Shown in pieces: positions 4,200 through 5,621 of a stretch of 64,000 nt of DNA. The position numbers were made by a program, and so were the translations under genes. The notes under the pieces are model-generated. The model was not told where the DNA came from and ran no database searches. It was given only the letters and a program-made list of their open reading frames with translations. The stretch lies in the NCBI RefSeq assembly GCF_988243305.1, contig NZ_OZ547136.1; one strand, 5' to 3'. How positions within the stretch are numbered: position 1 is the stretch's first letter; each line of letters begins with the position of its first letter.

Positions 4200-4467
4200 A
4201 ATGGGACTGAACAGCGATGTCACTGCCGAAGAGGTTTATGACCTGGCTGTACTGGCACTGAATTTATCAAATATCGCAAACCTGAAGCGATACGAGCTTG
4301 ATATGGATGGTTGCGACTCGTGCGGTCAGGATTGTGGCGCAGATATGACTGAAGATCCTGATGGTGATTATGTCCTGTTTGATGACGTGGTTAAGTTGTT
4401 TGAATTTGATACAACCACTCAAAAGTTAGAAATCCCGGCAAAGGAGGCTGCCAGTGAGCAAGATTGA
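4153..4467 (+). CDS. Hypothetical prophage protein
   Basis: ORF 4129-4467 (TTG); ATG at 4153 preferred. Confidence 0.4.
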   Translation: MTITKQRVEKIIYRHEMGLNSDVTAEEVYDLAVLALNLSNIANLKRYELDMDGCDSCGQDCGADMTEDPDGDYVLFDDVVKLFEFDTTTQKLEIPAKEAASEQD

Positions 4468-4636
4468 CTATCAGGCACTGCGCGAGGCGGCGGAACAGGC
4501 AACGCAAGATGAATGGGTAGCATATATTTGCCGGGTCATAACGGCATTTATCCTGCGCGCACGTCTGAGGGTAGGCATTGCGGATACTTTATTGACTGGC
4601 CTGGCGTCTGTCAGGGGCGGGAGAGCATCAACATGA
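4454..4636 (+). CDS. Hypothetical small protein (60 aa)
   Basis: ORF whose stop overlaps next start (ATGA at 4633-4636); N-terminus resembles that of the 5136 gene. Confidence 0.4.
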   Translation: MSKIDYQALREAAEQATQDEWVAYICRVITAFILRARLRVGIADTLLTGLASVRGGRAST

Positions 4637-5139
4637 GCATCAGAACCTACGCAGTGAATTGCAATGACGCATGGCTAAACACCGAAGGTGATGACATCTC
4701 CGGCTCATACGTTAAGTACAAAGACCATCAGGAAGTGGTTGCCGCTCTTGAGGCCAAGTGCGCGGCGCTGGCAGCGGAGAATGCGGGAATAAAGTCTGCA
4801 ATTCCAGAATCACGGGATATTGAGGATGACAATGACAATATGGATGACGTATCTCTCGCGGAAGACTTCGGGTTCAATCATGCAATAGAACGGATGAGGA
4901 GACAGATACCTGAAACGCCAACCACTGATGCTTTCCTGGCTGAAGTCCGGGCGCAGGGGGTGGACGCTGCTATAGAAGCTGCAAAAAATCTGGTGGCCCA
5001 AGAATATGAGTATAAGGATTTCAAAGCGGCGCAGAGTGATTGCTGTATGTACCCTGGTTCAGACCTGGTAGGGAAGGTTGAAATGACTGAGTGGTTAGTT
5101 GACTTTGCTGCCCAGCTTCGCAAAGGAGGCAACCAGTGA
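4633..5139 (+). CDS. Hypothetical prophage protein (168 aa)
   Basis: ATG 4633 with GGGAGAG SD; coupled to flanking genes. Confidence 0.5.
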   Translation: MSIRTYAVNCNDAWLNTEGDDISGSYVKYKDHQEVVAALEAKCAALAAENAGIKSAIPESRDIEDDNDNMDDVSLAEDFGFNHAIERMRRQIPETPTTDAFLAEVRAQGVDAAIEAAKNLVAQEYEYKDFKAAQSDCCMYPGSDLVGKVEMTEWLVDFAAQLRKGGNQ

Positions 5140-5621
5140 GCGAAATTAATTACCAGGCACTGCGTGAGGTGGCGGAACGTGCAATTCCAGCAATGGAACG
5201 CCTGTTAATGTTGCCAGCTGATGATGACTTGTTAAGTGAACAGGAACTTAAAGATTACGGTGTGGATATTGATGCGCTCAACGCCTTCAAATTTCTGACC
5301 GGACCAGAAACCGTGCTGGCACTGCTGGATGAACGGGAAAGAAACCTGCAATACATCAAAAGCCGCGATCAGGAGAACGAGGATATTGCGCTAACGGTAG
5401 GGAAGCTGCGCGTTGAGCTTGAAGCAGAAAAACAGCGGGCAAAAGTTCTATTTATGGAAAATGCTCGGCTTAAGTCAGGCATAGCCGGTCTGATACACCT
5501 CGGTATTCGATATGCAGATGTTGAGGTCATGAAAATTGCTGGAGATGCCCAGCTTTCTACCCCATGCACTGACAGCATCATAAACAGCATTGCAACAGGC
5601 ATTCGCATCAAAGGAGAGTGA
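5136..5621 (+). CDS. Hypothetical prophage protein (161 aa)
   Basis: GTG start overlapping previous stop (GTGA); coiled-coil-like composition. Confidence 0.5.
   Translation: MSEINYQALREVAERAIPAMERLLMLPADDDLLSEQELKDYGVDIDALNAFKFLTGPETVLALLDERERNLQYIKSRDQENEDIALTVGKLRVELEAEKQRAKVLFMENARLKSGIAGLIHLGIRYADVEVMKIAGDAQLSTPCTDSIINSIATGIRIKGE

Follow-up and report, generated by a model that had tools for sequence, protein, structure and literature searches.

What do three small, overlapping open reading frames (ORFs) represent when two of them begin almost alike? The question is raised by positions 4454 to 5621 of a 64,000-nucleotide stretch of DNA from contig NZ_OZ547136.1 (NCBI RefSeq assembly GCF_988243305.1), the whole of which is called here the window. 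A first-pass annotation had read this run as three tightly coupled genes and proposed a duplicated module with shared interaction or regulatory N-termini. In the present study, we consider it highly probable that the run consists of two tandem Ead/Ea22-like paralogues, of which the first is frameshifted, that the matching N-termini are a segment common to the family, and that the conserved gene ends act as flanks for the swapping of cassettes.

Layout of the open reading frames and their matching starts

ORF1 opens with a GTG at 4454, begins MSKIDYQALREAAEQA and closes after 60 codons at a TGA (4634-4636); ORF2 runs from an ATG at 4633 over 168 codons to a TGA at 5137-5139; and ORF3, of 161 codons, opens with a GTG at 5136, begins MSEINYQALREVAERA and ends at 5621. 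The stop/start overlaps reported in the first-pass annotation are present (ATGA at 4633-4636 and GTGA at 5136-5139), and so are the near-identical starts of the ORFs at 4454 and 5136, which have 11 of 16 residues and 39 of 48 nucleotides in common.

This similarity is confirmed not to be a matter of chance. When the 68-nt segment around the first start (4436-4503) was compared with the entire 64-kb window, its sole significant second copy lay at 5120-5178, aligned over 59 nt at 84.7% identity (E = 5e-8), far above chance and indicative of a relationship at the DNA level. Likewise, a tblastn search of the window with the 25-residue N-terminus found only 5136-5183 (E = 6e-4). The likeness extends upstream of both GTGs, where 15 of 20 nt match and the Shine-Dalgarno sequence AAAGGAGG stands 6 nt before each start (4440-4447 and 5122-5129); the first of these two junctions sits within the 3' end of the gene upstream (4153-4467). 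After codon 16 the nucleotide identity between ORF1 and ORF3 falls abruptly to background (5 of 22), and beyond the motif the two encoded proteins, with the first one restored as described below, are about 27% identical. The genes are paralogous, as had been supposed, and their N-termini are homologous both in protein and in DNA.

A single Ead/Ea22-like gene broken by a one-base deletion

Comparison with other genomes indicates that ORF1 and ORF2 are the halves of a single Ead/Ea22-like gene (gene 1), split by a 1-bp deletion, so that with ORF3 (gene 2) the three genes of the earlier description become two. Over the same interval, strain BEC1-S17-ESBL-09 has one extra T and a single intact 228-residue Ea22-like gene, the T run being ATATTTTG in that allele versus ATATTTG in the window. 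The intact protein reads MSKIDYQALREAAEQATQDEWVAYILPGHNG...INMSIRTYAV..., and because it reads through the latter segment, the "start" of ORF2 is an internal Met codon; from residue 61 to residue 228 the intact protein and ORF2 do not differ (100% identity). The NCBI Prokaryotic Genome Annotation Pipeline (PGAP) annotates exactly 4454-5139 in SF-088, whose DNA is identical here, as a single "ead/Ea22-like family protein, frameshifted". The Pfam profile PF13935 (Ead_Ea22), with its gathering score of 27 bits as the threshold of membership, is divided between the two frames in the same manner: residues 2-26 of ORF1 match only profile positions 1-25 (38.8 bits), ORF2 matches only positions 48-138 (43.3 bits), and the restored gene 1 matches positions 1-138 (102.2 bits).

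Gene 1 has also been broken elsewhere by a different lesion. In O111:H2 and O55:H7 strains the TTTT is kept and an independent TG insertion follows position 4579, some 50 nt downstream, with the result that gene 1 is split there into 61 + 168 residues. Both frameshifts enter the same wrong frame and meet the same first stop, and the shared split is therefore forced by the frame. Furthermore, the stop of ORF1 exists only through the frameshift, which makes the ATGA overlap of ORF1 and ORF2 a by-product of it. The tight coupling claimed for the run consequently holds at the GTGA between gene 1 and gene 2, which is equipped with a strong Shine-Dalgarno sequence, and falls away at the ATGA. Gene 1 is probably inactive; the 168-residue body could be made from the ATG at 4633, in a form devoid of the N-terminal segment.

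Frequency of the intact and split alleles

The 2.1 kb from 4100 to 6200 are 100% identical to at least four independent complete Escherichia coli genomes. To place the allele among its relatives, we probed complete E. coli genomes with 90 nt centred on the T run (4483-4572), which gave 234 records. The exact allele of the window occurs in only 7 of them, and 225 fall in the band of 95-99% identity, where nearly all rows shown span 91 nt and thus hold the extra base. At the protein level, the exact 60-residue product of ORF1 is found on 741 public contigs, the exact 168-residue product on at least 1000, and the exact intact sequence on 32; near-identical intact variants of 226-237 residues are many, each on tens to hundreds of contigs (50-400). 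The intact form of gene 1 is the norm. We also considered whether the split state might outnumber the intact one (741 against 32 contigs), and rejected this on account of the many intact variants and the 7 of 234 records.

Among the alternatives, the one that survives best holds that gene 1 is a functional split gene, in which a 60-residue peptide and a 168-residue body are both made, through reinitiation at the ATGA, as separate but coupled proteins. It can draw on the overlap itself, together with a GGAG 9 nt upstream of the ATG at 4633, on the two origins of the arrangement (the T deletion, and the TG insertion of O111:H2/O55:H7) that share one stop, on the wide distribution of both products, and on the existence of a PHROG family consisting of exactly the 60-residue product (phrog_14804). 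Nevertheless, the common stop is dictated by the common frame and not selected, 35 of the 60 residues of ORF1 are out of frame, the ATG of ORF2 is that of an internal Met, the intact allele dominates, and PGAP calls a pseudogene. We therefore hold a functional split gene to be improbable.

Additionally, the same gene 1 segment (4483-4572) was located in 240 places in complete E. coli genomes, of which 155 are on plasmids of about 90-110 kb. These are likely to be P1-like phage-plasmids, because other parts of the locus match Punavirus P1 records. The Ea22-like cassette, to judge from these matches, moves between lambdoid prophages and P1-like elements.

Gene 2 and its likeness to lambda Ea22

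Gene 2 matches PF13935 over profile positions 1-139 (108.8 bits, E = 4e-31) and is 54% identical to lambda Ea22 (PF13935/IPR025153) over its first 101 residues (BLASTP, E = 8e-28). The two genes have in common the GTG start, the N-terminal motif MSEIN.QALRE.AE.A, the central segment LLDERERN.QYIK.RDQENEDIALTVGKLRVELE, the GIRIKGE end and the place in the leftward early operon, upstream of xis-int. Read from its GTG in the lambda record, ea22 encodes MSEINSQALREAAEQAMHDDW...LLDERERNQQYIKRRDQENEDIALTVGKLRVELE...GIRIKGE, and its conserved amino-terminal segment, MSEINSQALREAAEQA, is matched, GTG start included, by both gene 1 and gene 2. They differ in two respects: in gene 2 the motif is followed by an insertion of 20 residues, and the C-terminal part of its product, from about residue 102 to 154, bears no relation to the C-terminal domain solved for the lambda protein. 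In the first 48 nt, gene 1 agrees with lambda ea22 at 40 positions and gene 2 at 39, the same number at which genes 1 and 2 agree with each other. The BLASTP match of the restored gene 1 to lambda Ea22 stops at residue 21, with 15 of 21 residues identical.

The last 24 nt of gene 2 (5598-5621) are identical to the end of lambda ea22 (2027-2050 of the lambda record) although the preceding sequence is unrelated, and they double as the source of the Shine-Dalgarno sequence for the next gene (ATG 5623). The K/RGE end that has been noted in Ea22 proteins (PMC7093339) is present in gene 2 (GIRIKGE) and missing from gene 1, which ends LRKGGNQ.

An AlphaFold2 model of the gene 2 product (mean predicted local distance difference test score, pLDDT, of 87) has an N-terminal helix at residues 6-24, then short helices, and a continuous 69-residue helix at 57-125 with pLDDT above 90; this predicted long helix is consistent with the published coiled coil. 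Searches of PDB sequences with gene 2 and the restored gene 1 returned chance-level matches only (E above 0.1), and NCBIfam gave no match among the eight proteins tested.

With AAAGGAGG 6 nt upstream of the GTG and an overlap of four nucleotides with the end of gene 1 (GTGA, 5136-5139), gene 2 has the arrangement expected of translational coupling and appears to be coupled to gene 1. The GTG starts of Ead/Ea22-like genes are annotated inconsistently: PGAP begins gene 2 at an internal ATG (5193; 142 residues) in SF-088 and at GTG 5136 (161 residues) in other genomes, and the lambda record annotates ea22 from an internal ATG (167 residues), the GTG-initiated ORF having 182 codons.

The shared N-terminus as a motif of the whole family

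A search with ORF3 through 1.8 billion cluster representatives yielded 399 relatives, many of them 85-97% identical over part of their length only, and the motif was scored in the best 150. It stands at the very N-terminus in 116 of these 150, and among them it is followed by at least 10 unrelated continuations, including IPAMERLL, TQGEWVAF, TCGEWSLEYG, TWGDWDSYKP, TKGSYIVGH, MHDDWGFD, QNAKDLGG and AIKIVATPQ. The matching N-termini of genes 1 and 2 are, by this comparison, best read as the conserved first 16-21 residues or so of the Ead/Ea22 family, not as the trace of a local duplication. The family segment is predicted to be the start of an alpha-helix, and the interaction or regulatory role suggested for it in the first-pass annotation is possible, published work on Ea22 leaving room for a part of this segment in tetramerisation.

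The conservation is also pronounced in nucleotides, since the 68-nt segment matches 369 phage records, including lambda, many phages encoding Shiga toxin (Stx) 1a or Stx2a, HK-type phages and Salmonella phages. We asked whether a conserved RNA element lay behind this and rejected the idea: folding of the two 5' junctions and that of lambda gave positive z-scores of +1.0, +1.5 and +0.2, respectively, that is, less structure than in shuffled sequences, and Rfam at its gathering threshold had no matches in positions 1-9000. The best account of the nucleotide conservation at the junctions brings together protein constraint, a strong translation-initiation region free of structure and repeated homologous exchange.

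Among the database proteins there are some that read through such junctions or are fused across them, for example ...AAKLRKGGKPVSKIDYQALRE and MDGCDSCGQDCGADMTEDSDG... followed by the Ea22 motif at about residue 51. Stop/start overlaps of this kind are evidently easily turned into gene fusions, as these sequences suggest.

Coincidence of conserved gene ends with mosaic joints

Conserved boundary ("linker") sequences are found at the module joints of lambdoid phage genomes and belong to the concept of their modular evolution. The present locus resembles them in that short stretches of conserved DNA at gene starts and ends surround unrelated interiors, that an isogenic prophage changes its cassette within the 5' segment, and that match ends cluster at both segments. 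It differs in that the 5' segment also encodes a conserved helix, so that protein constraint and recombination are inseparable here.

Only 21 of the 2,839 E. coli records matching the 2.1-kb query cover at least 80% of it. We determined where the partial matches end in a spread sample of 60 (megablast, E. coli genomes). The ends cluster at the start (4438-4442) and the end (4482-4494) of the first 5' junction, at the second one (5119-5125 and 5166-5177), and at 5598-5630, where the 3' segment of gene 2 gives way to the gene that follows, with many matches beginning at 5598.

The isogenic prophage, that of E. coli strain RIVM_C037134, provides a direct example of such a breakpoint. Its segment 2501-4905, compared with 4100-6700 of the window, is 100% identical up to 4479, breaks within the motif (4479/4480), diverges completely thereafter and regains identity at 6234, at 99% onward. 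Between these points, a single Ea22-like gene of a different type (271 residues) replaces both Ea22-like genes and the gene that follows them. The shared N-terminal segment coincides with a mosaic recombination joint. Furthermore, many phages converting to Stx1a, Stx2a or Stx2c share parts of the locus at 95-97%, and parts are found in P1-like phage-plasmids; arrays of two or three different Ea22-like genes are common, and the 2.1-kb locus finds matches in up to 11 places per genome.

The Ea22 genes of Stx phages (V1-V3 and mosaic genes; PMC10834534, PMC7093339) offer a close parallel, with the same common amino-terminal segment, a coiled coil, dissimilar C-terminal domains and a common K/RGE end that is found in gene 2 and replaced by RKGGNQ in gene 1. 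The present locus departs from them in that two family members stand in tandem, one of them frameshifted.

A bolder idea about the N-terminal helix is that it serves as a docking or hetero-oligomerisation handle, through which co-resident paralogues would form mixed tetramers bearing different C-terminal effector domains; a free N-terminal peptide released by frameshift alleles such as the present one would interfere with this assembly, and the 5' and 3' segments would be kept as exchange flanks across lambdoid, P22-like and P1-like phages. We regard this as a long shot.

Remaining alternatives and points against the favoured explanation

Programmed recoding, by -1 ribosomal frameshifting or by transcriptional slippage, would yield a full-length protein from the TTT allele, and it might be suspected since the missing base belongs to a homopolymer run and the frame beyond it is open for 203 codons. 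However, the zero frame (GCA TAT ATT TGC) has no slippery heptamer of the X XXY YYZ type, and transcriptional slippage would need more than three T in a row. A hairpin of five pairs does follow directly (4529-4546), but it is one of eight terminator-like matches and has no slippery site to act on. Moreover, most homologues are in frame with TTTT, the shifted arrangement is not conserved, and the second frameshift, unrelated to the first, lies elsewhere in gene 1. Recoding is very improbable on these grounds.

The idea of a duplicated module, put in concrete terms, is that gene 1 or gene 2 arose by recent local tandem duplication within the prophage and that the N-termini are its remnant. The two genes are indeed adjacent, in the same orientation, of the same family and provided with the same Shine-Dalgarno/GTG junction. 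Yet the similarity is limited to about 59 nt at 85%, with some 27% protein identity in the rest; the matching segment is the conserved start of the whole family, each copy resembling lambda ea22 just as much as it resembles its neighbour; each gene has near-identical solo copies in other phages and P1-like plasmids; and arrays of different Ea22-like genes are commonplace. We give this explanation hardly any credence, and the duplicated module is abandoned with it. As for a sequencing or assembly error that conceals an intact gene 1, single-base indels in homopolymers are frequent in long reads, but the identical allele recurs in at least four independent complete genomes, in 7 probe records and on 741 contigs from several sources, and a run of three or four T is too short to be error-prone, which leaves this possibility next to none.

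The explanation that we favour, two tandem Ead/Ea22-like paralogues with gene 1 frameshifted, has to contend with several points that weigh against it. The frameshift allele is present on 741 contigs and hence is not rapidly purged. ORF2, with its GGAG and ATGA overlap, could be translated and could have retained a function. Past residue 21, gene 1 resembles lambda Ea22 at the profile level only, which makes the transfer of function weak, and the function of Ea22-like proteins is itself known only at the level of phenotype. The role as a recombination joint, finally, is drawn from one fully analysed isogenic pair and the sample of 60 matches.

Proposed mechanism and function

The favoured explanation can be cast as a sequence of steps. 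With the loss of one T from the TTTT of gene 1 (4527-4529), translation from GTG 4454 would leave the frame after residue 25 and stop at 4636, and the remaining 168 codons appear as a separate ORF from the internal ATG overlapping that stop. Gene 1 would then yield no active product, or at most a body that lacks its N-terminus. The intact gene 2, presumably coupled to it by the GTGA with AAAGGAGG 6 nt upstream, would be expressed early from pL, as work on the Ea22 family suggests. The 5' segment with its ribosome-binding site and the 24-nt 3' segment would serve as flanks through which Ea22 cassettes are swapped by homologous recombination.

Ea22 genes are known to be mosaic, with a common N-terminus, a coiled coil and a variable C-terminal domain (PMC10834534, PMC7093339), and the Ea22 proteins of lambda and P27 are tetramers (PMC7093339, PMC10834534). 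By comparison with Ea22 of lambda and Stx phages, the product of gene 2 may well be a coiled-coil protein that assembles into oligomers and, through its variable C-terminal part, tips the phage toward lysogeny or the survival of the host. The Ea22 proteins of lambda and of some Stx phages are the only ones for which the pro-lysogenic effect is known, and in the case of lambda the phenotype of the full-length protein was not obtained with the C-terminal domain by itself (PMC7093339, PMC10834534).

Prophage context and neighbouring genes

The locus belongs to the accessory genes of the early-left operon in an E. coli lambdoid prophage that is inserted in yecE, and it stands between repressor and xis-int (Table 1). 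Both Ea22-like genes are on the + strand, among closely packed ORFs that overlap one another, in the order LexA-like repressor, helix-turn-helix protein, small genes, the two Ea22-like genes, DUF4222, excisionase, integrase and yecE. Beyond the left end of the window, the prophage has Rha, a DnaB-like helicase, RusA, the Q antiterminator and tRNA genes, an arrangement of the lambdoid kind, and the region of the Ea22-like genes corresponds to the exo-xis or "ea" accessory region of lambda, where the gene order is the same. A promoter scan of 3500-7500 found no promoter-like site on the + strand, and a terminator scan of the same interval gave eight matches to the terminator-like consensus versus 3.2 expected from shuffles, which we took as chance level. 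Both scans are consistent with one polycistronic operon.

Table 1. Coordinates of the Ea22-like genes, their conserved ends and the flanking prophage genes in the window
Feature	Position	Strand	Remarks
Gene 1, Ead/Ea22-like	4454..5139	+	228 residues when intact; here a frameshifted pseudogene or split gene
ORF1	4454..4636	+	60-residue truncated product: 25 native N-terminal and 35 out-of-frame residues
Frameshift site	4527..4529	+	TTT here versus TTTT in intact alleles (alignment)
ORF2	4633..5139	+	last 168 codons of gene 1, from an internal Met codon
Gene 1 conserved 5' junction	4440..4501	+	AAAGGAGG, GTG 4454 and first 16 codons (Ead/Ea22 N-terminal motif)
Gene 2 conserved 5' junction	5122..5183	+	AAAGGAGG 5122-5129, GTG in GTGA 5136-5139 and first 16 codons
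Gene 2 (ORF3), intact Ead/Ea22-like	5136..5621	+	161 residues; C-terminal part unlike lambda Ea22
Conserved 3' junction	5598..5621	+	GGCATTCGCATCAAAGGAGAGTGA (GIRIKGE-stop); 24 of 24 nt as in the 3' end of lambda ea22
LexA-like repressor	780-1475		upstream of the Ea22-like genes
Excisionase	7147-7383		downstream of the Ea22-like genes
Integrase	7439-8752		adjoins yecE, yecN, cmoA, cmoB and torZ

At the right-hand end of the prophage (7439-9504), the coding sequence that PGAP assigns to yecE starts within the 3' end of int, which suggests that the phage integrated into the 5' part of this gene and gave it a new start.

A second set of neighbours with paralogous N-termini, including MTITKQRVEKI, is formed by the genes at 6135-6320, 6317-6661 and 4153-4467. 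All three match PHROGs 60 and 3323, and those at 6135 and 6317 also have PHROGs 660 and 5117 in common, through their N-terminal 50 residues or so; PGAP labels 6135-6269 "incomplete, missing C-terminus". The pair at 6135 and 6317 resembles an N-terminal stub placed ahead of a complete gene and coupled to it by ATGA, in the same mosaic pattern as that of the Ea22 genes. Directly after gene 2, an ORF is open for 171 codons (5623-6138), with matches to phrog_9263/631 and a weak one to a "DNA repair protein" PHROG; Pfam and NCBIfam gave no match for it, and PGAP's annotation, a "frameshifted hypothetical protein", stops at 5801 and leaves out the rest of a frame that has no stop before 6138.

Implications

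The Ead/Ea22 family, its mosaic architecture and the K/RGE end are already published, and the frameshift is already flagged by standard annotation, so that these findings hold nothing unexpected for phage specialists. For annotation they mean that the "genes" of 60 and 168 residues in the databases, the former even with a PHROG of its own (phrog_14804), are pieces of a single Ea22-like gene that has been frameshifted. The locus also illustrates how Ea22 cassettes pass between lambdoid prophages, P1-like plasmids and Stx phages by exchange at conserved gene ends. In Stx phages the exo-xis region is poorly understood, and Ea22 counts among the few factors encoded there that favour lysogeny; natural variants such as those described here, a body without its N-terminus and tandem paralogues, could help to dissect the role of the N-terminal segment.

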